Part shown: positions 1,667 to 32,999 of the stretch, one piece after another
How positions within the stretch are numbered: the first letter of the stretch is position 1
How the letters are laid out: each line of letters starts with the position of its first letter
DNA from: Candidatus Woesearchaeota archaeon
GTDB taxonomy: Archaea > Nanobdellota > Nanobdellia > Pacearchaeales > GW2011-AR1
Assembly: GCA_964428325.1 (NCBI GenBank)
Contig: CAYRXU010000002.1
Span: 8,505-72,504 of the forward strand
Direction: 5' to 3'
DNA: 64,000 nt
Program-made: the position numbers and the translations under genes
The notes under the pieces: generated by a model
Databases searched by the model: none
What the model was told of the DNA's origin: nothing
Seen by the model: the letters and a program-made list of their open reading frames with translations, nothing else

Positions 1667-3673
1667 ATGGAAGCAAAGAAAAGAGAAGAATTATTACAAG
1701 AGGCAAAGAACTTCTTCGAAGCACACAAATCGCATATTATAGGCGAGTCTATGCGCGAGCAGCAAAACGTAGTCAAGCTTTCTCTCAAAACACTAGCCGA
1801 ATTCTCACCAGAACTAAGCGATAATGTAATTACATCTCCGGTAGACACTCTCGCCCTGCTAGAGGACGCCCTTGCACAACTAGGTCTCCAAAAGAATCCA
1901 CGAATCCGTTTCACAGAAGTTCCAGATACAGTCAGAGAAAAAATAAGAAACATTAGAGCAAAACACCTAGACCAGTTCCTTTGGGTTGAGGGGATTGTGA
2001 GACAAGCGTCAGATGTCAGACCTCAAGTAGTAAACGCTAGATTCGAATGTCCTACCTGCGGAGCTATTCTATCTGTCTTGCAAATCGACAAGAAATTCCG
2101 CGAACCATCACGTTGCTCATGTGGCAGAAAAGGTCAATTCAAAACACTCTCAAAGGAAATGGTAGACGCTCAACGCCTAGTCATCGAAGAAGCTCCAGAT
2201 GCGCTTGAAGGCGGAGAACAACCAAAACGCATTAGCGTATTTCTGCAAGAAGATCTAGTAGAGCCACAAATCGAAGAGCGAACAACTCCAGGAGCCAGAG
2301 TAAGAATCTTCGGCGTTCTAAAAGAAGTGCCCGTACCCTTGCAAACAGGAGCAATTTCCACAAGATTCGATATCGCCATTGAAGCCAACAATACTATTCC
2401 ATTAGAAGAAACATTTGCAGACCTAAAGATCACAGAAGAAGATGAAAGGCAAATCCTCGAGCTTTCAACAGACCCACAATCATTCCACAAACTTTCAAAG
2501 AGCATCGCACCAAGCGTATACGGATTCGAGAAAGTAAAAGAAGCTCTTCTTCTGCAACTCTTTTCAGGTGTAAAGAAGAAAAAATCAGACGGCGGTTTCA
2601 CAAGAGGAAACATGCACATTCTTCTTGTAGGAGATCCCGGCGTAGCAAAATCAGTCACCCTCAAATTTATGTCACGTATTGCCCCAAAAGGCCGGTACGT
2701 GTCAGGTAAGGCTACGACGGGCGCAGGTCTCACAGCGGCCGTAGTAAAAGACGAATTCCTGAAAGGCTGGTCTCTAGAAGCAGGAGCCATGGTTCTCGGT
2801 AACAAAGGAATGGTGTGTGTGGACGAAATTGAAAAAATGGACGAACACGACCGAAGCACAATGCACGAAGCCATGGAACAACAAACAGTTACAATTTCCA
2901 AGGCGAACATTCAAGCAACACTACGTTCAGAGACCTCAGTACTTGCAGCAGGAAACCCAAAAATGGGAAGATTTGATCCATTCACACCAATCCCACAACA
3001 AATCGACATCTCCCCGGCACTACTTAGCCGCTTCGACGTTATTTTCGTTCTAAGGGATATCCCAAACAAAAACCAAGATGAAGCTATTGCATCACACGTT
3101 CTTCAAGAACATAAGCAGGAAGTCATTCGCGAAGTAGTAGATCCGTCACTCTTAAGAAAATATGTTGCATTTGCCCAACGCCTCTCACCAAAACTCACAG
3201 ATGAAGCAATTAATGAGATAAAGAACTTCTACGTCCATTTGAGAAATCAATCTGTCTCAACAGATAAAGACATCAAACCAATCCCAATCACGGCACGTCA
3301 GCTAGAAGCAATCATCCGTCTATCTGAAGCCTGCGCTCGCATCAGACTCAGTGAAAAGGTAATGGCAAGTGACGCAAAACGCGCTATTGATCTTCTCAAA
3401 TACTCTCTCCTTCAAGTTGGCTATGATGAAGAGACAAAAACCTTCGACATCGATCGCATCGGGGGCATGCCAACTGCAAAGCGTAGCAAAATCGTCCTCA
3501 TAAGGGACGCCATTGCAAGATTACAAGCAAAGATGGGCAAACTCATCCCGATGGAAGAACTCCAGAAGGAATTACCAGACATGCAACCCCACGATATGGA
3601 AGAGGCCATATCAGAGCTGAAAAAGAAAGGAGACCTCTTTGAGCCAAAACATGGCTATATCCAGGTCACATAA
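1667..3673 (+). CDS. mcm: MCM replicative helicase
   Basis: Zn finger CPTCG...CSCG, Walker A GDPGVAKS, Walker B VCVDEIEKM, arginine finger SRFD, and a C-terminal winged-helix-like tail. Confidence 0.95.
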   Translation: MEAKKREELLQEAKNFFEAHKSHIIGESMREQQNVVKLSLKTLAEFSPELSDNVITSPVDTLALLEDALAQLGLQKNPRIRFTEVPDTVREKIRNIRAKHLDQFLWVEGIVRQASDVRPQVVNARFECPTCGAILSVLQIDKKFREPSRCSCGRKGQFKTLSKEMVDAQRLVIEEAPDALEGGEQPKRISVFLQEDLVEPQIEERTTPGARVRIFGVLKEVPVPLQTGAISTRFDIAIEANNTIPLEETFADLKITEEDERQILELSTDPQSFHKLSKSIAPSVYGFEKVKEALLLQLFSGVKKKKSDGGFTRGNMHILLVGDPGVAKSVTLKFMSRIAPKGRYVSGKATTGAGLTAAVVKDEFLKGWSLEAGAMVLGNKGMVCVDEIEKMDEHDRSTMHEAMEQQTVTISKANIQATLRSETSVLAAGNPKMGRFDPFTPIPQQIDISPALLSRFDVIFVLRDIPNKNQDEAIASHVLQEHKQEVIREVVDPSLLRKYVAFAQRLSPKLTDEAINEIKNFYVHLRNQSVSTDKDIKPIPITARQLEAIIRLSEACARIRLSEKVMASDAKRAIDLLKYSLLQVGYDEETKTFDIDRIGGMPTAKRSKIVLIRDAIARLQAKMGKLIPMEELQKELPDMQPHDMEEAISELKKKGDLFEPKHGYIQVT

Positions 3674-3703
3674 TACTTAAAAACTAACACGCCAAAAAAC
3701 AAT

Positions 3704-4318
3704 ATGCCAGACCAAGAATTCAAACGTCATATAGCACACAAGAAGAGAATCGGAGATATTCTCACAGGTCAAGTTATCATGGAGGGCGACAAATTCAAAT
3801 GCCTAGAACTAGGCGGAGAGCAAATCGTCAGAACTAACATCATTGCAAACATTGTTGACAAATACGTTCAGGACGGAGAAAAGAAATTCGCATCTATAAC
3901 ACTAGATGATGCTACAGGACAAATCAAGCTCAAGGTATTCGGAGAAGACATAAAGAAATTCGAAGCATTCTCACAAGGAGACACTATTATTACCATCGGT
4001 CTTTTGCGTGCATGGAACAATGAGCTCTACCTATCGCCAGAAATAATGAAAAAGCGCGAACCAGCTTATCTTGTAGTAAGAAAGCTTGAACTCGACTCCG
4101 AGAAGCCAAAAATCGTAGAGAAAGGTGAACTCACAAACGTGCGCAATCAAATCCTTCAAACAGTAAAAGCACAAGATGAAAATGGTGGAATAGATGTAGA
4201 GCGAATGATTCTCGACCTAAAGGCCTCCCCAGACATTATCAACAATGAAATCAGAAAACTATTGGAAGAAGGTCTCGTTTACGAGCCTCGCCCAGGTAAA
4301 CTGAGATATCTAGGATAA
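3704..4318 (+). CDS. OB-fold ssDNA-binding (RPA-like) protein with C-terminal winged-helix-like domain
   Basis: OB-like core (IIANIVDKY...ITLDDATGQIKLKVFGE...TIGLLRAWNNELYL) lies directly downstream of mcm. The assignment is tentative. Confidence 0.5.
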   Translation: MPDQEFKRHIAHKKRIGDILTGQVIMEGDKFKCLELGGEQIVRTNIIANIVDKYVQDGEKKFASITLDDATGQIKLKVFGEDIKKFEAFSQGDTIITIGLLRAWNNELYLSPEIMKKREPAYLVVRKLELDSEKPKIVEKGELTNVRNQILQTVKAQDENGGIDVERMILDLKASPDIINNEIRKLLEEGLVYEPRPGKLRYLG

Positions 4319-4789
4319 ATGGAAGACGCAAAGCAGAAAGCCCATTATATTGCCGTCACAGGCATCGTAACAAACAAAGAAGGCAAATATCTTCTATGCA
4401 AACGCAGCCCAAGTGAAAAAGCATTTCCAAACAAGTGGTGCTTTCCTGGTGGAAAAATAGAGCAATCAGATTTCATCAACACAAAAAAAGATACAAGCGA
4501 TCATTGGCTTGACATTTTTGAAAAAACTTTAAAGAAAGAGATAAAGGAAGAAACAGGCCTTACAATTAAGCCCACAGATTACATCGCAAGCCTTGTATTC
4601 ATCCGTCCAAATGGATTTTCTACAGTTATTGTCAATCTCCTAGCAGAATACGAATCAGGAGAACTTAAACTACAGCAAAGCGAACTAGTAGACGCCGCTT
4701 GGGTAACACTGGAAGAAGCAAAAAATTACGATCTCATAGAGAACATCTATGATCAACTCGAGAAAGCGGATAGGAAACTGAGAAACTAA
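4319..4789 (+). CDS. NUDIX-family hydrolase (non-canonical box)
   Basis: PGGKIE...LKKEIKEETGL. The Nudix box is interrupted by a roughly 20-aa insert and has K for the usual R. The start abuts the previous stop (TAAATG). Confidence 0.65.
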   Translation: MEDAKQKAHYIAVTGIVTNKEGKYLLCKRSPSEKAFPNKWCFPGGKIEQSDFINTKKDTSDHWLDIFEKTLKKEIKEETGLTIKPTDYIASLVFIRPNGFSTVIVNLLAEYESGELKLQQSELVDAAWVTLEEAKNYDLIENIYDQLEKADRKLRN

Positions 4790-5874
4790 ATCCTCCTCAC
4801 AACACCAGTAGCTGCATCCAACTCAATCATCTCGCCTTCCTTCAGAATACTAGTATCTCCAACACCAACAACGCACGGCTTGCCTAACTCCCGCGCAACG
4901 ATAGCCGCATGAGATAACATGCCTCCTCCAGAAGTAATAATACCTCCTGCCTGTTGCATCAAAACAAAATAATCTGGCGTCATCATATCACAAACAAGAA
5001 TATCTCCCCAGCTCAGCTCCGTTTTTGCAACATTCTCACTCGAAACAAATCGTACGCGACCTTTCGCCTTGCCATTACTAGCGACCTGCCCCTTGACAAG
5101 AGTTGGCACATTAGCACTCTGAAGAGGAACGAAATCAGCATACAAATCTCCTATTGTTTTATTGTAATCAATAAACCAAGTCCCAAACTCTGCAGATTTA
5201 ACCGTTTCAAAATACCCCCTCATGTACTCTCCCAAGAAAGTTGCACCCGCATTTTTCTCAAGCACCCATCTCTTTTGCTGATTATCAACTTTAATGTAAC
5301 GCACTATCTCCTGCACATGTTCACGCACATCAGGTCTATTCTCACTGAACGTCCATCCGTGTAGGTCAAACGAGAACGTTATGGGCTTGCCGTTCTCGTG
5401 CACACCTTGAGTCAATTGATGGTGCCCGCCTCGAATAATTTCCCCAAAAATGCCCTTATTATTCACAACAAAAATAGTACTCCACAAAGCAGTTTCCGGG
5501 TGAGGTACAAAGTCGGCCAGATAGTCCTCTGGTTTTATCTTCTGCTCCTTAAACCAAACTAGAGCATCTTTGACAGTTTTCCCACGCATTCTCAACTTAG
5601 GCAAAGATGCGTCTCTCGGCATAAGCCTCAATTCACACAACTCCTTTCCATGTTCACGTACGAATTGTTTGAATTCAAAGCTTTCTAACGCAATATCATT
5701 TGCAGAAAAAGAGTGCGGCTTATCAAACGGCAAGTCAATAATCGTATTGATGGTAGCAAGTTTCTCTCGTTTAACATTATCCTCTGCGCGAAGTTTCTCC
5801 GTATGTTCATGCTTGATATTCGCAAACCATTCGGTTATTGAAATCTGCTTTTCGTATAAATTATCAATCGCCAT
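4786..5874 (-). CDS. PEP-utilising-enzyme mobile (swivelling His) domain protein with unknown N-terminal domain
   Basis: The C-terminus GGIITSGGGMLSHAAIVARELGKPCVVGV is the phospho-His swivel domain of PEP synthase/PPDK-type enzymes. No PEP/pyruvate TIM-barrel domain is present. Confidence 0.7.
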   Translation of the reverse strand: MAIDNLYEKQISITEWFANIKHEHTEKLRAEDNVKREKLATINTIIDLPFDKPHSFSANDIALESFEFKQFVREHGKELCELRLMPRDASLPKLRMRGKTVKDALVWFKEQKIKPEDYLADFVPHPETALWSTIFVVNNKGIFGEIIRGGHHQLTQGVHENGKPITFSFDLHGWTFSENRPDVREHVQEIVRYIKVDNQQKRWVLEKNAGATFLGEYMRGYFETVKSAEFGTWFIDYNKTIGDLYADFVPLQSANVPTLVKGQVASNGKAKGRVRFVSSENVAKTELSWGDILVCDMMTPDYFVLMQQAGGIITSGGGMLSHAAIVARELGKPCVVGVGDTSILKEGEMIELDAATGVVRRI

Positions 5875-22514: not shown

Positions 22515-23732
22515 ATGAAACCACTAAGATTTGAGATCACAGCGAAAGACAAGAAAACACGGGCACGTGCAGGCATTATCCACACACCTCATGGAAAAAT
22601 AGAAACTCCCTATCTTATTCCTGTTGCTACACGCGCACGGATAGAAGCTCTGAGTTCCACCGACCTCAAAAGATTAAAGGTCCAAGCATTACTCTCCAAT
22701 ACGTACCACCTCCATTTTCAACCGGGTGAAAAGAAGATAAAAAGAAAAGGCGGTCTGCGTGGATACATGGGTCTCAAAGTACCCTTCTTCACAGACTCAG
22801 GAGGATTCCAGGCCATGTCCTTAGGCGACACATTGGCAGATGGGTTCAGCAAGCTAGGCAAAAATGCACAAAGAGTAAAAGAAAGAAAAGAGTCGTTCAT
22901 AAAAATAACAGATAAAGGTGTCCACTTCAAATCCATCTACGATAATAAATGGTCCTTCCTTGACGCAAAGAAATCAATGCAGATACAATCTGACCTTGGC
23001 GCAAACGCGATCATGTCATTTGACGAATGCACTGCGGCCAACAAATCACATGAATATCAAAAACAAGCTCTAGAAAGAACAAAGAAGTGGGGGATACAAT
23101 CTCTCAAATATCACGATAAAAAACAGGCCCTATACGGCATAATCCAAGGAGGACAATTCAAGGATCTTCGACTTGAAAGCACCAAATTCGTCTCAAATTT
23201 GCCATTCGATGGCATTGCAGTAGGAGGCAGTTTTGGCGAGTCCTACGGAGACTCAAAGAAAGCCATGCATCAAATATTGGAATGGATCATGCTCGAACTC
23301 GAAAAAAACCAAGAAAGTTATGATAAGCCCCGTCATATGTTGGGCATCGGATGGATAGACGACTTATTCGAATGCGTTGAGCGAGGCATGGATACATTTG
23401 ATTGTGTAGAAATGACTCGCATTGCCCGACATGGAAACGTATTCGTAAGTCCAGAAGGCGGTGGAAATTTAAAAAACAAATTCAGAATATCCATAAAAGA
23501 AAGTGACGCTCTAAAGAAACCAATAGATCCGAAATGTTCTTGTTCAACATGCAAAAAATATACGCGAGCAGATCTCTACAGATTAAAACTAAAATACAAG
23601 GAAGGCATCAAGGAATTCGGCCGTTTGACAACTATACACAACATCCATTTCATGCAAGATCTATGTGCACAGATAAGAAAGTCAATCAAGGCAGGCACCT
23701 TCAGAAAACTCAAGAACAAGTGGATAAAGTAA
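22515..23732 (+). CDS. tgt: tRNA-guanine transglycosylase, bacterial (queuine) type
   Basis: FTDSGGFQ, GIAVGG, MLGIGWIDDLFECVERGMDTFDCV and zinc site CSCSTC...H. 405 aa, with no PUA or C-terminal ArcTGT domains. Confidence 0.8.
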   Translation: MKPLRFEITAKDKKTRARAGIIHTPHGKIETPYLIPVATRARIEALSSTDLKRLKVQALLSNTYHLHFQPGEKKIKRKGGLRGYMGLKVPFFTDSGGFQAMSLGDTLADGFSKLGKNAQRVKERKESFIKITDKGVHFKSIYDNKWSFLDAKKSMQIQSDLGANAIMSFDECTAANKSHEYQKQALERTKKWGIQSLKYHDKKQALYGIIQGGQFKDLRLESTKFVSNLPFDGIAVGGSFGESYGDSKKAMHQILEWIMLELEKNQESYDKPRHMLGIGWIDDLFECVERGMDTFDCVEMTRIARHGNVFVSPEGGGNLKNKFRISIKESDALKKPIDPKCSCSTCKKYTRADLYRLKLKYKEGIKEFGRLTTIHNIHFMQDLCAQIRKSIKAGTFRKLKNKWIK

Positions 23733-23765: not shown

Positions 23766-25208
23766 CTATTTGACTATCCTTTCAAGCAACTCCATCGCCT
23801 TCTTGGCATCAACCTTGCCCTTGAGTTTAGCCATAACCATCCCCATATAAGCGTTCGGTCTCAATCCTGGTTTTTCCTTAACAATAGCACGTACTTCGGC
23901 TTCAAGCTCATTATCATCGACTTTCTCAATCTTGGAAGCTTTCTCAATATCCTGCCCTTCAGCAACACGCACCATAACTGTCTTCACATCGCCAACAGAT
24001 AACGCCCCCTTAGCTACACGCTCAATAATCTTCTCAAGCATACGTTCACTCAGTACCCCCTTAATCTCATCCACATTCTTGCCCTGCTTAGTAGCGATCT
24101 CATTTCTCCAGAGAGTCACCATCTTACCAACAAGATTTGCATCCCTATCATACACGCTCATAAGCGCATTAAACTCATCAAGCGTCTCATGCTTGTCCAA
24201 CACAAGTTCGATCAGCTCATCATGCAATCCTTTCTTTTTCAACTCCGTGCGTATATCCCCCTTCAATTTAGGCAAGCTCTTCTTCAATCGGTTAATATGT
24301 TCCAATCCGATACGCAACAATTCCAAATCAGTCTCAGGATACATTCGCGCTTTACCAGGCATAGGTCTCAAGAACTCAGTCGTACCATCTGGCAGGGCGT
24401 TTCTCACTCCCCCCTCAGTCTTCTTTACTTTAATCTCAGCCTGTTGTCTCTCAATCTCGCGTAATATTGTACTCACGAACATAGCAGGATCTTGGAAACC
24501 CTTTATCTCAACGCGATCATGTCCTTTTATGGAAACATTAACGTCCTGTCTAATAGTTCCAATACCGCGCTTAACCTTACAAGCACGCAAAATCTCGCCA
24601 ATCTTCAGTGCAGCCTCCTTAACTTGCTCGGCACTTACCATAGCAGGAGCAGTAGCAATCTCAACAAGAGGAATACCGAGTCTGTCTAAGCGATAAACTG
24701 CCTTATTCTCATCACGTGAAATAATACGTGCAGAATCCTCTTCAAGACAAACACTCTCAACAGGAACTTTTCCAAAGCTCGTCTCAATAAAGCCATCATG
24801 CGCAATGAGCAAAGTCCTCTGAAATCCACTCGTGTTGCTTCCATCAATAACAGTCTTGCGCATAACCTGAGTCACAGGATAAATATCACAATTTAGCAAC
24901 AAAGCAACTTGCAAAGCAACATCAAGCGCCTCGCCATTTATCGATCTTGGAGGCTCTTCATCCAATTCTACAAGAGAAATAGTATCATTATAACCCTCAT
25001 ACAAAAAATCTTTCTCAAGAGAAGCTTCATGTGCTGCAGCAACATCCACAACGCCACTCTCACCAGCAACAGCATGTAATTTGCGTTTGATAGTATAATG
25101 TGGTTCGTCATTTCTCAAAAAAGAAGGTGCTCCAGAAAACAACTTAGGAGTATCAAGTTGCTGGTGGATTTCCAATCCAGCCTTAAAGCCTAATTTCAAA
25201 TAGTCCAT
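23766..25208 (-). CDS. gatE: Glu-tRNA(Gln) amidotransferase subunit E, short form
   Basis: GLEIHQQLDT, IDGSNTSGFQRT, LDRLGIPLVEI, RQDVNVSI and a C-terminal YqeY-like tail. It is 480 aa versus about 620 typical. Confidence 0.8.
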   Translation of the reverse strand: MDYLKLGFKAGLEIHQQLDTPKLFSGAPSFLRNDEPHYTIKRKLHAVAGESGVVDVAAAHEASLEKDFLYEGYNDTISLVELDEEPPRSINGEALDVALQVALLLNCDIYPVTQVMRKTVIDGSNTSGFQRTLLIAHDGFIETSFGKVPVESVCLEEDSARIISRDENKAVYRLDRLGIPLVEIATAPAMVSAEQVKEAALKIGEILRACKVKRGIGTIRQDVNVSIKGHDRVEIKGFQDPAMFVSTILREIERQQAEIKVKKTEGGVRNALPDGTTEFLRPMPGKARMYPETDLELLRIGLEHINRLKKSLPKLKGDIRTELKKKGLHDELIELVLDKHETLDEFNALMSVYDRDANLVGKMVTLWRNEIATKQGKNVDEIKGVLSERMLEKIIERVAKGALSVGDVKTVMVRVAEGQDIEKASKIEKVDDNELEAEVRAIVKEKPGLRPNAYMGMVMAKLKGKVDAKKAMELLERIVK

Positions 25209-25256
25209 AAAGAAGATTGCAAATTTGGTTATTTATAGATTTAGTCTATGCCCTGA

Positions 25257-26036
25257 CTAACCGAGAGTGGCATAAACAGATGTGCGGTAAGCACTACGCA
25301 CAGACGTAAGGATGTTACTAAGAGACTCGTCAACTTTGCCGCCTATGAAATTAACAAACCTCTTCTGACCTTCCTCCAGACCATCGCGCATCGAAACAAG
25401 AGCACTTTCCAAAATGGATAGATAGTTATGTCGTTCAAAGGCTGGAATAATAGCAGGAGGTAAATGAGCATCATACAGTATCTTCGATTGGATAAGTCGG
25501 GCAATGCGCTTATTCCCTGCATTAAATGGCTGTATCCCTACGAGCCTAAGATGTGCAAGCGCGGCACGTTCGACAGGATGTTCTCTATCGCCAGAAACAG
25601 AGGCTTCACTTAGAGCGGCAGCGACTAAAAATGGTACCTTAAGAGGATTTGGAGGGACATAAGAATTCAACTGAAGGCTAACACGTTCAACACGATAACC
25701 CTTATTATTAGAATGAGGTTCAACTTTTCTGGCCACTCCATGTAAGGCTTCTTCAGATAACGGTTTATCATGGCCAACCAAATAATGCCAAGCATCGTCA
25801 AGACGGCTTACTGCTTCACGTGCACATCTGATAAGTCTTCCGCGCTGGAGTTGAGTTGCCGAAGCGCATCGGGAAGCGTGCCTTATATCTGGATGTTCAA
25901 TAGGCCAAGAAAAGGGCTTATTTTCAGAGGTGAATGCACCGCGGATGCGTGCTTCTCTTTGAAGATGAAAAAGAGGGTCTTCGACAAGAGAGTCATGCTT
26001 AGACTTGATAGACTGGACAAGCCCCCTATCCAACAT
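25257..26036 (-). CDS. Fic/Doc-family protein with substituted catalytic His
   Basis: Core HLRLVGIQPFNAGNKRIARLIQSKILYDAHLPP matches HxFx[DN][AG]N[GK]R, except that Q (CAG, 25530-25532) replaces H. Confidence 0.65.
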   Translation of the reverse strand: MLDRGLVQSIKSKHDSLVEDPLFHLQREARIRGAFTSENKPFSWPIEHPDIRHASRCASATQLQRGRLIRCAREAVSRLDDAWHYLVGHDKPLSEEALHGVARKVEPHSNNKGYRVERVSLQLNSYVPPNPLKVPFLVAAALSEASVSGDREHPVERAALAHLRLVGIQPFNAGNKRIARLIQSKILYDAHLPPAIIPAFERHNYLSILESALVSMRDGLEEGQKRFVNFIGGKVDESLSNILTSVRSAYRTSVYATLG

Positions 26037-26081
26037 AGATAAATTAAATATGAAGGGTTTTTAAATTTATAACTTGCAAGA

Positions 26082-27335
26082 CTACTCATTCAAAATCGGA
26101 TTGAACTCTCCAGCTACATTCTCAAGCATCTTTTCACTGGCCTTATCCTTCCACCCTCTATGGCCCAATATCCATCCAAGCTTCACAAAAGCCGTCTCGC
26201 TCAACATGTCCTCAAGAGCAACAACGCCAATAGCACTCAATCCCCTTCCTGTCGAATAAACTTTCGGGTTTAAACGACCAAAAATAGTTTGCGCCGTAGT
26301 ACAAACAACACAACCTTCACGAATAAGTTTCTTCAAGGCAGGAATCCAGCTATGTTCAACATCCGCACTTGGTAAGTTACCAAGCCCGTACGCTTCAATA
26401 ATCAATCCCTTGTAACCATGCATGCGATAATAATCAACGATGTCAGAACTCTGCCCAGGATAAAATTTCACGACCGCAACCTTATCATTGAAAACAGCAT
26501 CAAGTTCTGTCTTTCCGTTATGCTTAGCTTTGAAATGAGAAAGAAATTCAACTCTATCAGGCCAAACCTTAGCGACAGGCCCACAATTAACGCTTTTGAA
26601 CGCATCACGTCGTGAAGCGTGCAATTTGCGCACCTTAGTTCCACGCAAAGCATGGCAATAATCATCATTCATACTTGCGTGTCCCACAAGCATAACTTCA
26701 GCGCAATTGCTCAAAGCGAATCGTGCAGCACATCGTAGATTAAGATCTGCATCGCTACTTCCACGATCGATACTTCGTTGCGCATAAGTCAACACAACAG
26801 GTTTGTTCAAATCTTTCAAAAAGAAAGAAAGCGCAGCGGCAGTGTAATGCAGCGTATCCGTTCCATGCGTTACAACAACCCCTTCAATATCAGGATCATC
26901 AAGCAATTTCTTCACAGCCCGGGCAATTTCAATCCATTTATCAGGACTCATATTCTCAGACAAAGTCATAAACGGAATTTCAATAGATTTCACATTAACC
27001 ATCTCAAAAAGCCCAGGATAAAACTGCGCAAACGAGTTAACATCTGTAAGAGCGTTCACCCCCCCAGTCTTAGGGTCGGTGCGTGAAGCAATTGTCCCTC
27101 CCGTCATCACAAGTCCAATAGAAGACAGACCCTTTCTCTTTGGGGCTTCTGGCGCAACAGCCCTGGCTGCCGCTTTACGCAACACATGTTCTCCAAGAAT
27201 ATGATCCTTCGGAATGCCGATATTATATCCAGAACTCAATTTCACAAGAACAATATCACTCTCATGGCTCTCAAGAATAGTACACTCAAGTTCATCTCTT
27301 GCAAGACGCAATTTCACGAAATCCCCAGGCTCCAT
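26082..27335 (-). CDS. gatD: Glu-tRNA(Gln) amidotransferase subunit D
   Basis: Asparaginase motifs MTGGTIASR and THGTDT, with an N-terminal small barrel domain. The start lies 1 nt after the proS stop. Confidence 0.9.
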   Translation of the reverse strand: MEPGDFVKLRLARDELECTILESHESDIVLVKLSSGYNIGIPKDHILGEHVLRKAAARAVAPEAPKRKGLSSIGLVMTGGTIASRTDPKTGGVNALTDVNSFAQFYPGLFEMVNVKSIEIPFMTLSENMSPDKWIEIARAVKKLLDDPDIEGVVVTHGTDTLHYTAAALSFFLKDLNKPVVLTYAQRSIDRGSSDADLNLRCAARFALSNCAEVMLVGHASMNDDYCHALRGTKVRKLHASRRDAFKSVNCGPVAKVWPDRVEFLSHFKAKHNGKTELDAVFNDKVAVVKFYPGQSSDIVDYYRMHGYKGLIIEAYGLGNLPSADVEHSWIPALKKLIREGCVVCTTAQTIFGRLNPKVYSTGRGLSAIGVVALEDMLSETAFVKLGWILGHRGWKDKASEKMLENVAGEFNPILNE

Positions 27336-27336
27336 C

Positions 27337-28785
27337 CTAGTAACTCCTGCCTACATACACCACTTTGCTAGCATTCTCGCCACAAACAACGCACTTACCT
27401 GAAGCCTTCTCGGCCTTCAAATTAGTGCCCCTCACTTGTGCCCCTGTCGCCTCAGCAAGCTTGTCAGCACACCTAGTGCCTTCACTTCCAGTAGAGCAGA
27501 AACCACAACGCGCAACTTTCCCATCTTCAACGAGTTTCTTTACATCTGCAACAGATTTAGCATCCTTAATACGTCCTTCAAACAATTTATCAGCTTCTTT
27601 CGTAAGATGAGGCGTATATTGTTCTGCCGCTTTCTCCACGTACTCGACAAGTTCTTTCTCGCCGATCAATTCCTTCTTATTCGTATCCCTTCTAAACACG
27701 CTCAATTTCTTCTCTTTCAATTCTTTATCTCCAAGATCGATACGCAAAGGCACGCCCTTCAACTCCCACGTGTGGAATTTCTCGCCAGGACTATTTTCAC
27801 TCACATCAATATGAACACGATAACCTTCAAGCTGCTCTTTTAGTTTCTCGGCGTTCTCACGGGCCTTCTCACTCAAAGGTACAATTACAACCTGATAAGG
27901 AGCAATATCCCAAGGTAATCGCAAGCCCTTATCATCACCATGGACGATAATTACACTCGCAAAAATACGAGAAACAGCAGGACCATAACACGTAGAATAA
28001 GGAGTCTTATCCTTCCCATCTTTATCCTTATACGTTACGCCAAATGCCTTCAAGAAATCCTGCTTGATCATATGAGTCGAAGGCTGTTGTACAAACTTTC
28101 CATCAGGATTCAGCACATCTGCAGCAAAAGTTCTATCTGCTCCAGGAAACTTATCCCAATAAGGCCTCTCAAAGAAGATAAAAGGCAGCCCAAGAGTATC
28201 ATGTAAAACTTCCTTAGTAGTATCCATATCTTCATGCACTTGCTCCATCGCCTTCTCGCTGCTATTGAAAAGACAGTGGGTCTCAATCCAATGGAATTCG
28301 CGTGATCTCAAGAAGGGTCGAGTCGCTTTGGTCTCGTATCTAAAAACTTGCGCACGTTGATAGCTCTTGAAAGGTAATTGCTTATACGATCTAAGCCATA
28401 GCGCGAACATCTGATAGAAAGCAGTCTCAGAGGTAGGTCTCAAGGCAAGTTTCTCTTCAAATTTGCTATCTCCACCCTGTGTAATCCAAAATACTTCAGG
28501 AGTGAATCCCTTGATATGTGAACTTTCTCTTGTTAAATTTCCTTCAGGAATAACAGTAGGAAACCAATAAGGTTCATGTCCCTTACGTCTCAATACTTGC
28601 TCCAAATGAGAATAAATCAATTCCATTGCTCTAACAGACCAAGGCTGAAACACAAGAAAACCCTTTACATTATAACGCAAGTCAGCAAGTTCGGCTTTCT
28701 GAACAACATCTGAAAACCAGTTGGAAAAATCTCCAGATTTCGTCGCAGACAAACCCTTTACATCTTTACCAGCCATAGAAAACAA
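27337..28785 (-). CDS. proS: prolyl-tRNA synthetase, archaeal/eukaryotic type
   Basis: Class II motifs, C-terminal Zn domain (CGFCSTG...CVVCGE) and terminal ...YVGRSY. Confidence 0.9.
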   Translation of the reverse strand: MFSMAGKDVKGLSATKSGDFSNWFSDVVQKAELADLRYNVKGFLVFQPWSVRAMELIYSHLEQVLRRKGHEPYWFPTVIPEGNLTRESSHIKGFTPEVFWITQGGDSKFEEKLALRPTSETAFYQMFALWLRSYKQLPFKSYQRAQVFRYETKATRPFLRSREFHWIETHCLFNSSEKAMEQVHEDMDTTKEVLHDTLGLPFIFFERPYWDKFPGADRTFAADVLNPDGKFVQQPSTHMIKQDFLKAFGVTYKDKDGKDKTPYSTCYGPAVSRIFASVIIVHGDDKGLRLPWDIAPYQVVIVPLSEKARENAEKLKEQLEGYRVHIDVSENSPGEKFHTWELKGVPLRIDLGDKELKEKKLSVFRRDTNKKELIGEKELVEYVEKAAEQYTPHLTKEADKLFEGRIKDAKSVADVKKLVEDGKVARCGFCSTGSEGTRCADKLAEATGAQVRGTNLKAEKASGKCVVCGENASKVVYVGRSY

Positions 28786-30643: not shown

Positions 30644-31657
30644 ATGAACTTACTTATCCATAAAAAAGAAGGAATATACTGCCCTGAAGGCCAGTTCCAT
30701 ATAGACCCTTCCAGTAGTGTAGAAACTGCGTTAATAACGCATGGGCACACAGATCATGTGAGAAAGGGTAGCAAGCACTATATCTGTGCAGAGCCACTTG
30801 AAGAAATTCTAAGACATCGTGTAGGCAAAAAGCCGACCATAACAACCATGCCCTACGGCAAAAAAATAAATCTCAATAACACAACAGTCTCCTTCCATCC
30901 TGCTGGTCACATGCTCGGCTCGTCTCAAATCCGCGTTGAAGCAAACAAAGAAGTCTGGGTGGTTTCAGGAGACTACAAAAGAGATAACGATCCCTCATGT
31001 ACTCCTTTCGAGCCCTTAGAATGCGACGTCTTCATAACCGAAGCCACATTTGCACATCCTAAATACGTCTGGCCATCATCTGCTAGCGTAGTTAAACAAA
31101 TCAAAGGATGGTGGCGCGCGAATAGCGAACAAAATACCACATCAATTCTTCATTGCTATTCTCTTGGTAAAACCCAACGCATGTTATCAGAGCTGTACGA
31201 CAATAAAATCGGAGACATCTTTATCCATAGAGCCATGGAGGCTTTCACGCAGCATTACCGTAACGCGAAAATCAAGCTCGCCCCAGCAGAGGTCATAACC
31301 CCAGAAACATCTTCAGAAAGACTCAAGAAAGCCCTCATAATCGCTCCCCCATCAAGCAACGCAGAATATATGCATCTTCTACAAGACTACGAAGCCGCTG
31401 CAGTTTCGGGCTGGACGCTAGATAATAAGTTCGGGGCACAAGGATTCACAATATCGGACCATGCCGACTGGCCTGCTCTTCTTCACACAATAGCTCAAAC
31501 AAAAGCAAAGAGAGTTCTTGTAACTCATGGCGATCCAACTCATCTTGTTCGACACCTCACAAAACTAGGCGTAAATGCACAACCGTTCGAAAAACCAAAG
31601 ACAATCAGAACAATCCTTGCAGAAGGGCAATACACCCTAAAAAAATTCTTCAATTAA
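30644..31657 (+). CDS. MBL-fold exonuclease of the bacterial DNA-ligase-associated type
   Basis: N-terminus EGIYCPEGQFHIDPSSSVETALITHGHTDHVRKGSKHYICAEP matches the ligase-associated exonuclease family as I recall it. 337 aa. Confidence 0.6.
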   Translation: MNLLIHKKEGIYCPEGQFHIDPSSSVETALITHGHTDHVRKGSKHYICAEPLEEILRHRVGKKPTITTMPYGKKINLNNTTVSFHPAGHMLGSSQIRVEANKEVWVVSGDYKRDNDPSCTPFEPLECDVFITEATFAHPKYVWPSSASVVKQIKGWWRANSEQNTTSILHCYSLGKTQRMLSELYDNKIGDIFIHRAMEAFTQHYRNAKIKLAPAEVITPETSSERLKKALIIAPPSSNAEYMHLLQDYEAAAVSGWTLDNKFGAQGFTISDHADWPALLHTIAQTKAKRVLVTHGDPTHLVRHLTKLGVNAQPFEKPKTIRTILAEGQYTLKKFFN

Positions 31658-32999
31658 GCAACTTCTCAAGCAACTCTCTTGCAACCTTGAAATCTGCTCT
31701 TCTATTAGTTGCTTTCATGACTTCACCCATTAAAAAATTAAGCAACTGCTTCTCGCCTTTCTTGTAGCGCTCAACCTCACCCTTATGTTTTTTGATTAGA
31801 CTCTCAACAATAGGCTTCAACTCTTTCACATCATCCATTTTCTCAGCAACATTCTTCGAAGGATCAAAACTTGCAGGCACAAATTTATTCAATATCTGCT
31901 TTGCTTGTAATTCAGTAATTTTCCCTTCCTTTACAAGTTTAAGCAATGTAACAAAATGTTCAATCTTGATATCGAGTTCGCTCAACTGTTTCTTATTCCA
32001 GTTCAGCACGCGGAACAATTCAATCGTAACCCACGGCAATGCAAACCCTCCATCTATTTTGCCTGCAACTTCTTCAAAGAATACTGCAATGTCAAGATGC
32101 TTAGCCAGTACGGTAGCGTCTTTCTCATCAATTTTATACTTCTTCACAAGTTTCTTGAGCTTCTCTTCAGGCATCTCTGGCAATTCGCTATCGATCTTCT
32201 TCACAAATGATTTCTCAACAACAACCGATTGCAGATCAGGATCAACAATGAATCGATAATCATCCTGTGCTTCCTTACTGCGCATGCGTATCGTGCGCCC
32301 CTTAAGATCATCGTAGCGTCTCGTCTCTCTAACAGAACCTTCTTCGTTCTGGCGTTGCAGCTCATAATTAATCGCCTTCATCACAGCTTCAACAGAACTA
32401 ATATTCTTCACTTCAACTCTCTCAGTCTTTCCAGGAATATTCACATTCACATCACACTTAATGCCAGCATTACTGTCTGCAACCTTAAGATAAGCAAGCG
32501 CATGTGTCAATTTCTGCAACCACTCGCCAACCTCTTCAGCATAATGGAAAGCAGGAGCAGTCACAATCTCTACAAGCGGCAGTCCAGAACGATTATAATC
32601 CACACATCCGCTAGAAGGATCCCAAGAGGCAGGGTCTTCCTCAAGATGCATACTGGAAACTTCAATACCTCCAAAGTTGCCATCGACTCCCAAGGGTGTT
32701 GCATGTGCGCCACTCATAGTTGTCTGATAACCCTTCGGCATATCAGGCCAATCATAATGCTTACGCATCCATCGCATCCGCTCATTAACATTACAACCAA
32801 GCATTCGTGCAATCATCACGGCCTTCTGCACAGCTTCAGCATTTGGAGCCATTGGCTTAGCCCCCGGTTGTCCGGAGCAAACCGGGCAAATATTCACATT
32901 CGGTTTCAATCCCTTCTCGCGCGAAGCAGTACAACGGCAGAACAGTTTTTCCTTCGTAACTAAATAAGTATGTATCTCGAGACCGATAAGACCCTTCAT
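31650..32999 (-). CDS. gatB: Asp/Glu-tRNA amidotransferase subunit B
   Basis: GLEIHTYL, KLFCRCT...CPVCSGQPGAKP and a C-terminal YqeY-like domain. Confidence 0.9.
   Translation of the reverse strand: MKGLIGLEIHTYLVTKEKLFCRCTASREKGLKPNVNICPVCSGQPGAKPMAPNAEAVQKAVMIARMLGCNVNERMRWMRKHYDWPDMPKGYQTTMSGAHATPLGVDGNFGGIEVSSMHLEEDPASWDPSSGCVDYNRSGLPLVEIVTAPAFHYAEEVGEWLQKLTHALAYLKVADSNAGIKCDVNVNIPGKTERVEVKNISSVEAVMKAINYELQRQNEEGSVRETRRYDDLKGRTIRMRSKEAQDDYRFIVDPDLQSVVVEKSFVKKIDSELPEMPEEKLKKLVKKYKIDEKDATVLAKHLDIAVFFEEVAGKIDGGFALPWVTIELFRVLNWNKKQLSELDIKIEHFVTLLKLVKEGKITELQAKQILNKFVPASFDPSKNVAEKMDDVKELKPIVESLIKKHKGEVERYKKGEKQLLNFLMGEVMKATNRRADFKVARELLEKLLN

Follow-up and report, generated by a model that had tools for sequence, protein, structure and literature searches.

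The gene described here, fic, lies in a 64,000-nucleotide stretch of DNA from a Candidatus Woesearchaeota archaeon (GenBank assembly GCA_964428325.1, contig CAYRXU010000002.1, positions 8,505–72,504 of the forward strand), which we call the window. The source genome, G000, is that of a reduced-genome DPANN archaeon, and its 696-kb assembly is 87% complete; other G numbers denote related genomes and L numbers denote loci. A sequence-only reading of the window had singled out fic as a Fic/Doc-like gene wedged between gatD and gatE, with Gln in place of the catalytic His. Profile matches to the neighbouring genes upheld that placement: the order is proS-gatD-fic-gatE, all four genes are on the minus strand, and the gaps on either side of fic are 45 nucleotides (nt) to gatD and 48 nt to gatE (Table 1). 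The product of the open reading frame (ORF) matched the Pfam Fic family PF02661 at residues 110–187 (E 4.5e-12, 47.1 bits against a cut-off of 24), so that its membership of the Fic/Fido superfamily, claimed in that reading, stands above the curated threshold. Its close homologues come from Candidatus Woesearchaeota, Pacearchaeota and Nanoarchaeota archaea. A 90-aa ORF runs antisense within fic, and we treated it as a chance ORF.

The signature loop of the protein reads QPFNAGNKRIAR and is contained in HLRLVGIQPFNAGNKRIARLIQ of the product. When PDB sequences were searched with phmmer, IQPFNAGNKRIAR (IQPFNAGNKR) aligned to IHPFIDGNGRTSR (IHPFIDGNGR) of FICD. Compared with the canonical HPFx(D/E)GNGR, the loop shows three departures: Gln169 (codon CAG, 25532–25530) replaces the catalytic His, Ala173 replaces the Mg-binding Asp or Glu, and Lys176 replaces the second Gly of the anion nest. 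The Gln codon and the Doc-like flavour of the NKR sequence had both been recognized earlier, and both were confirmed, the former by sequence and by the FICD alignment. The accompanying claim, that the loop fits the Fic/Doc core at every position other than the His, holds for the Gln and Lys changes; it overlooked the third departure, the Ala at the D/N position. The window protein therefore departs from the canonical AMP-transferase signature HPFx(D/E)GNGRxxR, which includes the catalytic His, and from the Doc motif HxFx(D/N)(A/G)NKR, of which it has the NKR, with Gln for His and Ala at the D/N position. Below, family members are denoted by their residues at positions 169 and 176, as H/G, H/K or Q/K.

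Table 1. Positions of fic, its motifs and promoter, the neighbouring genes, and selected occupants of the same place in related genomes (Q/K, Gln169 with Lys176)
Feature	Sequence	Position	Strand	Basis or remark
fic gene, class II (FICD-like) Fic fold, Q/K subtype	window	25257-26036	minus	259-aa ORF, ATG start
Fic signature loop Q169-P-F-N-A173-G-N175-K176-R177-I-A-R180	window	25497-25532	minus	sequence and FICD alignment
Inhibitory-helix motif S43-W-P-I-E47 (then H-P)	window	25896-25910	minus	homologue of class II (S/T)xxxE(G/N)
Flap, target-docking hairpin (Y114-R115...Y126-V-P-P-N130)	window	25647-25697	minus	aligns to FICD RFRTTQVLVG--HHIPPHP
fic TATA box TTTAAAAA	window	26058-26065	minus	starts 29 nt before ATG; leaderless-type promoter
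gatE TATA-like box TATAAATA	window	25230-25237	minus	plain, gatE's own
Inverted repeat TTAGTC-N8-GACTAA	window	25241-25260	minus	overlaps fic stop
gatD	window	26082-27335	minus	TIGR02153, 422 bits; Pfam GatD_N and Asparaginase
gatE, short 480-aa form	window	23766-25208	minus	TIGR00134, 405 bits in two stretches; Pfam GatB_N
proS (prolyl-tRNA synthetase, ProRS)	window	27337-28785	minus	
90-aa ORF antisense within fic	window	25770-26042	plus	treated as chance ORF
tRNA-guanine transglycosylase gene	window	22515-23732	plus	TIGR00430, 370 bits
Separate GatB paralogue	window	about 31656-32855		
AbiEii-type nucleotidyltransferase toxin homologue	L044 (G021)	2971-3774		23.8 bits, just above cut-off
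NTP_transf_5-like protein	L034 (G023)	2974-3870		below cut-off
LAGLIDADG-domain protein	L051 (G030)	2989-4107		

Outside the loop, the protein resembles FICD throughout. An 83-member family profile, compared with PDB sequences, matched human FICD over its full length, with profile positions 5–245 on chain residues 88–328 (E 1.2e-36). This alignment lays the family's 'hSvriEhp' on FICD 'HTVAIEGN' and so equates S43 and E47 with FICD T230 and E234; the search for an inhibitory-helix motif that the sequence-only reading had proposed thus succeeded, at S43-x3-E47. The Ser and Glu are present in 100% of H/G members and in 88–89% of the main Q/K clade (see below). The position after the inhibitory Glu is His in the window protein and Asn in some members (P0009, SWWIENP). 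In the flap, R115 is 98–100% conserved, and P128 and P129 are kept in both subtypes. An AlphaFold2 model built on a deeper alignment was confident (predicted local distance difference test, pLDDT, 93.5; predicted template-modelling score, pTM, 0.90), and the predicted structure has the Fic fold, a bundle of helices two of which flank the signature loop. It includes a short helix at residues 43–47, the least confident part of the model. In a first model from nine sequences, residues 38–50 had pLDDT below 50, and hhalign of the nine-sequence alignment with the canonical Fic P0010 aligned the core only, leaving the inhibitory helix unplaced. Foldseek against the PDB gave FICD as the best match (TMq 0.67–0.74, prob 1.00), followed by BT_2513 and C. 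elegans FIC-1.

By these comparisons the window protein is classed as a divergent class II, FICD-like Fic that has nothing but the NKR loop in common with Doc. It appears to be a minimal class II Fic with its own inhibitory Glu, for which a separate antitoxin would not be needed. The search for an adjacent antitoxin gene, also proposed earlier, was negative; the 45-nt and 48-nt flanks leave no space for one, and with the inhibitory motif lying inside the protein, the class I or Doc-type arrangement with a neighbouring antitoxin does not apply.

We next asked how the altered loop is distributed across the family. A profile search of 1.84 billion representatives yielded 92 proteins at E ≤ 1e-30 and 4988 at E ≤ 1e-3; together with 61 genomic copies, it gave a census of 212 full-length family members. 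The loop was H...NGR in 112 of these and Q...NKR in ∼95, with two H...NKR, one P...NKR, one R...NKK and not a single Q...NGR. All nine homologues at 40–50% identity have Q169, N175, K176 and R177, and the Gln members (∼95 cluster representatives) reach down to ∼25–30% identity. Gln is encoded by both of its codons (CAA 16, CAG 8), as is Lys (AAA 17, AAG 9); the change from Gly to Lys requires two base changes. Because Gln occurs in so many members and in both codons, a base-calling error at codon 169 is very unlikely.

Column statistics showed that only positions 169 and 176 split all Q/K members from all H/G members. Gln is found in 97% and Lys in 100% of the main Q/K clade, and H/G members have His and Gly without exception (100% each). 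Conserved in both subtypes are S43, E47, R115, H162, P170, F171, G174, N175, R177, R180, E201 and Y205. Relaxation of the Mg-binding acid is confined to the Q/K clade: position 173 is Asp in 99% of H/G members, and in the main Q/K clade it is Asp in 58% and Glu in 11%, with Ala in the window protein.

Several family members stood apart. The two H/K proteins, of 336–338 aa, carry IHPYxDGNKR, in which His accompanies Lys in a full Doc-like motif; their genes, at L102 (G187, 3719–4726) and L107 (G078, 3728–4741), both lie 4 nt upstream of gatE, and the two proteins could mark a stage between H/G and Q/K. Two Q/K copies have in-frame stops and are possibly pseudogenes (G249:C30:4423-5105 at L075 and G194:C3:2367-3104 at L078). 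These two belong to a set of five Q/K copies that are not near gatD or gatE (L075, L078, L073, L077 and L080).

A family tree was made with IQ-TREE (quick) after the motif columns had been removed. The window protein fell within the main Q/K clade of 86 members (cluster representatives), with support 98. Other Q/K lineages were nested among H/G relatives, as with P0064, a Q/K protein that is sister to an H/G protein (support 97), and the H/K pair L102/L107 was sister to H/G proteins (support 93). In all, the tree requires eight changes between His and non-His and nine between Gly and Lys. Judging the independence of the switches from branch supports and the pair count, we obtained five supported independent His/Gln pairs, and in all five the Gly/Lys position changes the same way. 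The coupled switch of His to Gln and Gly to Lys thus appears to have recurred on at least five supported branches. Within its clade the window protein is an ordinary member, with three deviations at 39 conserved columns (clade median two) and a terminal branch of 0.58 (median 0.49). These patterns of conservation establish fic as an intact, selectively maintained member of a DPANN family of small class II Fic proteins. They do not bear out the earlier suggestion of a recently inactivated toxin: Gln is fixed in an 86-member clade, and its repeated origin is always accompanied by the change of Gly to Lys.

What might such a loop do? In Fic enzymes the motif His acts as a general base that deprotonates the hydroxyl of the target. 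It is the catalytic residue of the signature motif in AMP transfer. In deAMPylation by FICD, which requires a divalent cation, the hydrolytic water is aligned by Glu234, with His363 as the putative general acid (PMC8373988). Since the window protein has Gln169 where base and acid are provided by His, and this copy also has Ala173 for the Mg-binding Asp, we infer that neither FICD reaction, AMPylation or deAMPylation, would be carried out by known Fic mechanisms. A side chain at the second nest Gly blocks canonical nucleoside triphosphate (NTP) binding (PMC8401265). The Lys of Doc at this position goes with an inverted ATP, which explains the kinase activity, a transfer of phosphoryl and not of AMP (PMC8401265, citing Castro-Roa 2013). 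In BepC, the Mg-binding acid of the motif has given way to a Lys that touches the alpha-phosphate itself, apparently making a divalent cation dispensable (PMC8401265).

By analogy with Doc, the Lys176 side chain would occupy the canonical alpha-phosphate site, and a ligand would bind in a non-canonical pose. Lys176 could then serve as a counter-charge that partly replaces the metal, supporting a His-independent, Lys-dependent chemistry that is not AMP transfer; the target would dock at the retained flap, and the conserved Glu47 would gate the activity. A specific alternative active site seems to fit the alignments better than mere loss, because nest, flap and gate are constrained as in the His-type proteins and because the exact pair of Gln and Lys has been re-selected repeatedly. 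For a His-independent, Lys-dependent catalytic activity as such, we would put the chances slightly short of even.

Almost as likely as a Lys-dependent enzyme is a purely binding role, a substantial possibility though one we do not favor. The Q/K Fic would then be a catalytically inactive sensor, sequestering factor or regulator whose flap, nest and Lys176 bind a phosphorylated or nucleotidylated ligand or a target protein. With Gln for His there is no general base or acid, and the Mg-binding acid, relaxed across the clade, is lost to Ala in the window copy. There is also a precedent in BepC, which has a non-canonical FIC motif and no detected enzymatic activity, yet binds and relocalises GEF-H1 (PMC8401265). 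No second Fic-family gene was found in G000 (at 87% assembly completeness), so the protein does not appear to be an eraser or reader for another Fic 'writer' in the same cell; a binder, however, need not read AMP marks. What tells against a binding-only role is the narrowness of the outcome. Many substitutions could kill activity, yet the family lands on Gln with Lys (no Q..G, one P..K and one R..K among ∼100), and N175, R177, R180, E47 and the flap remain as conserved as in the His-type.

The place of the gene in the genome was examined in a scan of 401 genomes of the order, 119 of which had a match at E ≤ 1e-15; locus figures are taken from the best 61 full-length copies. Of these copies, 51 share the strand of gatD and/or gatE and lie no more than 2.5 kb away, and wherever both genes are present the copy falls between them; 30 of the 61 were within 100 nt upstream of gatE. 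His-type and Gln-type copies show this link alike, so it is a property of the whole family and not only of its Q/K members. On the contigs of four homologues, the gene was directly upstream of gatE in every case and usually downstream of gatD, and most of nine GTDB genomes have the same placement. The possibility raised earlier, that orthologues would turn up at unrelated loci, was therefore not realized. At one locus (L099, G117), two tandem His-type Fic genes that overlap by 5 nt (3977–4780 and 4776–5573) were found upstream of gatE.

The position is nonetheless not reserved for Fic. In the genus of the window archaeon, it holds a Q/K Fic in G000 and G003, an H-Fic (IHPFRDGNGR) in G008, an unrelated 243-aa ORF in G004 and G005, and an unrelated 295-aa ORF in G007; in G001 it is empty and gatD abuts gatE. 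Identified occupants elsewhere are listed in Table 1, and the further ones are proteins of unknown kind. The family was present at 5 of 30 gatE loci of relatives, and full-length copies occur in ∼16% of the 401 genomes, with gatE itself in 40 of 41 relatives; this is not the co-occurrence expected of a third GatDE subunit. On a FastTree phylogeny of 70 GatE proteins, 23 changes are required to explain the state of the position (His-Fic, Q/K-Fic or none); with the states shuffled, the mean was 30.7 and the minimum 25. The 13 Q/K loci alone need 11 changes on the GatE tree, whereas in the family tree the Q/K genes are held together in one main clade. From this mismatch it follows that the cargo has been exchanged or lost many times and not co-inherited with gatE. 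We can describe the gatD-gatE position as a swappable slot for accessory genes, of which the Fic family is the commonest cargo.

Other genes at the slot were also considered. An opposite-strand gene for a DUF1003 membrane protein (130–170 aa, Pfam 133 bits) lies between gatD and fic in at least 15 loci, including L071, L079, L082, L084–L086, L089, L093–L095, L100 and L107. We set it aside as a Fic partner: the window has no such gene, and where it does occur it is transcribed against fic. The window's GatE lacks the GatE insertion domain, as seen in the split TIGR00134 match. Short GatE is found in most of 41 relatives, the 620–635-aa GatE being confined to G009, G024 and G032. The idea that Fic stands in for the missing domain was rejected, since the short form is so common and Fic is present in few. 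A separate GatB paralogue is encoded elsewhere in the window. The tRNA-guanine transglycosylase gene that adjoins the gatE cluster, in relatives as well as here, is of the bacterial queuine type without a PUA extension, matching TIGR00430 with 370 bits and the archaeosine TgtA profile with 112 bits (cut-off 350).

Promoter sequences speak to how the slot is used. In the window, TATA-like words occur 26–30 nt before the starts of 20 of 57 genes, against a background of 3%, a pile-up that indicates leaderless transcripts. The earlier reading had given fic a TATA-like element of its own. That fic has its own promoter is supported; the likeliest box, however, is TTTAAAAA, with the adjacent GTTATAAAT the less likely of the two. 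Its start 29 nt before the ATG is the modal position among 64 family promoters (33 of 64; −29 or −30 in 41 of 64). Upstream of nearly all family genes we found a module, TTGTAACT-N6-8-(G)AGTTACA-N3-GAAAGG-TTTAAATA, consisting of a palindrome, a transcription factor B recognition element (BRE) and a TATA box. The nearest relatives (G003/L001, L007 and L010) have the whole module with TATA at −29. The window promoter keeps TATA at −29 and is missing the GTAAC...GTTAC arms; GAGTAGTCTTGCAAGTTATAA before its TATA may be an eroded remnant of the family palindrome.

The same module stands ahead of non-Fic slot cargo (L027/L029 in G005 and G004, L028 in G007, L036, L037, L043 and L044) as well as at family loci across the order (L063–L122), and it looks like an operator for some putative regulator. 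Two loose copies were noted elsewhere in G000 (G000:C3:1764, plus strand, and G000:C4:57164, minus strand), ahead of 432-aa and 225-aa ORFs of unknown function. The inverted repeat after fic, which ends 2 nt before the gatE TATA (CTATAAATAA), could be a terminator-like hairpin, an operator or chance. Judged by promoter motifs, gatD is probably co-transcribed with proS, for there is no gap between them and gatD has no TATA of its own. By contrast, fic is probably promoted separately and, in relatives, controlled through the operator; having its own TATA, and in relatives the whole module, it should not be counted as just another gene of a gatD-gatE operon.

These findings bear on the suggestion that location points to a translation-related target or partner. 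In its strong form, fic would encode a dedicated partner of GatDE or of transamidation that modifies, regulates or scaffolds GatD, GatE, the non-discriminating glutamyl-tRNA synthetase (ND-GluRS) or Glu-tRNA(Gln), and its location would follow from that role. We consider this unlikely. The positional figures given above are its best argument, as is the tendency of the gene to remain with gatD or gatE where the cluster is broken. Other slot cargo, moreover, belongs to families known as translation-targeting toxins (the AbiEii nucleotidyltransferase), and Fic/Doc enzymes are known to target EF-Tu (PMC8401265; 10.64898/2026.07.09.737422). Yet gatE is universal and the family is in only ∼16% of genomes; a member of the same genus, G001, does with gatD and gatE directly adjacent; unrelated slot genes sit behind the same promoter module; fic and gatE have separate TATA boxes; the type of cargo is nearly random on the GatE tree; and the DUF1003 gene splits gatD from fic in at least 15 loci. 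So the observation that the family resides at gatD/gatE stands, and what was drawn from it is weakened by a slot that holds unrelated genes or none and by cargo that does not track the GatE tree. Because the position is swappable, adjacency to gatD and gatE is weak evidence for a GatDE partner; being 'wedged inside an operon' is, by itself, no evidence of a common pathway. We infer that fic is an optional, separately promoted accessory gene and not a subunit or obligate partner of GatDE.

That fic is a recently inactivated toxin, a nascent pseudogene or the product of a misread wobble base in codon 169 is hardly credible. In its favor, a single transversion separates CAG from CAY, the window genome has an eroded promoter palindrome, the Mg-binding Asp is gone as well and a few relatives (G249, G194) have in-frame stops. 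Against it, Gln is conserved across ∼95 cluster representatives in two codons and always coupled with the change of Gly to Lys, the ORF is intact and no more diverged than its clade, and the fold is confidently predicted (pLDDT 93.5).

On balance, and with a modest lean in its favor, we read fic as an intact, maintained class II Q/K Fic that is most likely a His-independent, Lys-dependent enzyme for something other than AMP transfer, carried as optional slot cargo and not as a GatDE subunit. Several points weigh against this reading. Lacking a general base, and in the window copy a metal ligand too, the protein may be incapable of phosphoryl or nucleotidyl transfer, which would favor binding only. 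A sign test on five pairs cannot fall below p = 0.0625, and the trees were made with quick IQ-TREE runs or with FastTree. So strong a positional link to gatD/gatE could still stem from a functional tie to which the slot model gives too little weight. Finally, with its palindrome eroded, fic in the window may be regulated differently from its relatives.

A bolder reading, which we regard as rather improbable, would make the Gln/Lys state a third catalytic mode of the Fido fold, beside the AMP type and the Doc type. The loop Lys would perform the chemistry with no His as base and largely metal-free, with Gln positioning substrate or water, and the substrate might be one that can react without being deprotonated, e.g., a carboxylate or a phosphate. 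The regulated slot would then swap Gln-Fic, its His-type parent and other group-transfer enzymes, AbiEii-type nucleotidyltransferases among them, since all of them act on aminoacyl-tRNA supply, e.g., on Glu-tRNA(Gln) or on GatDE/GluRS.

Fic enzymes are defined by their catalytic His, and members without it are usually dismissed as dead. Here a large natural family has gone from His to Gln at least five times, each time with a change from a backbone-only Gly to Lys and with other active-site features kept, the hallmark of an alternative active site under selection. The family provides a matched set of proteins of ∼250 aa, H/G, H/K and Q/K, in which to seek either a new chemistry of the Fido fold or a defined function for a pseudoenzyme. 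In these reduced genomes, the junction of gatD and gatE is in turn a regulated exchange point for accessory genes, which is relevant to the question of how uncultivated symbionts with small genomes retain and trade functions they can do without.

A literature search for Fic together with DPANN archaea, GatE or GatDE found no paper on this family, and comparison is with better-known Fic systems. FICD and other class II proteins (PDB 6I7G and 4U04; BT_2513, 3CUC; C. elegans FIC-1, 5JJ6) are nearest. The window protein shares with them the full-length profile match, the best fold match, the N-terminal Ser/Thr-x3-Glu helix, the flap (YR...PPxP), the PF, GN, R and xxR of the signature, and the upstream His162. 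It differs from FICD in having Gln for His363, Lys for Gly370, Ala for Asp367, and His instead of Gly or Asn after the inhibitory Glu; it has no tetratricopeptide repeat (TPR) or membrane anchor, and it is a 259-aa archaeal protein encoded in the gatD-gatE slot. With Doc, the EF-Tu kinase of Phd-Doc systems in phage P1 and bacteria, the window protein shares the Lys of NKR at the second nest Gly, and L102 and L107 carry the whole Doc-like HPYxDGNKR. Doc, however, keeps its catalytic His, is a shortened version of the Fido fold (∼125 aa) that lacks the inhibitory helix and is neutralised by a separate Phd antitoxin, whereas the window protein resembles FICD from end to end, has Gln and is not accompanied by an antitoxin ORF.

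The SoFic-type single-gene anti-phage Fic of PADLOC is likewise a class II Fic that stands alone at a variable accessory locus, and it gave a weak match of 40 bits. That match covers the Fic core only; the window protein lacks the C-terminal winged helix and the His, and its host is an archaeon. The FIC domains of Bartonella Beps likewise combine a side chain at the second Gly, Glu in their case, with frequent loss of the His, and they offer a precedent for binding without known activity (PMC8401265). Beps differ in being secreted effectors of a bacterial pathogen, derived from class I FicTA and equipped with OB and BID domains. Their variants, moreover, are heterogeneous, whereas in the DPANN family one exact pair, Gln with Lys, recurs.

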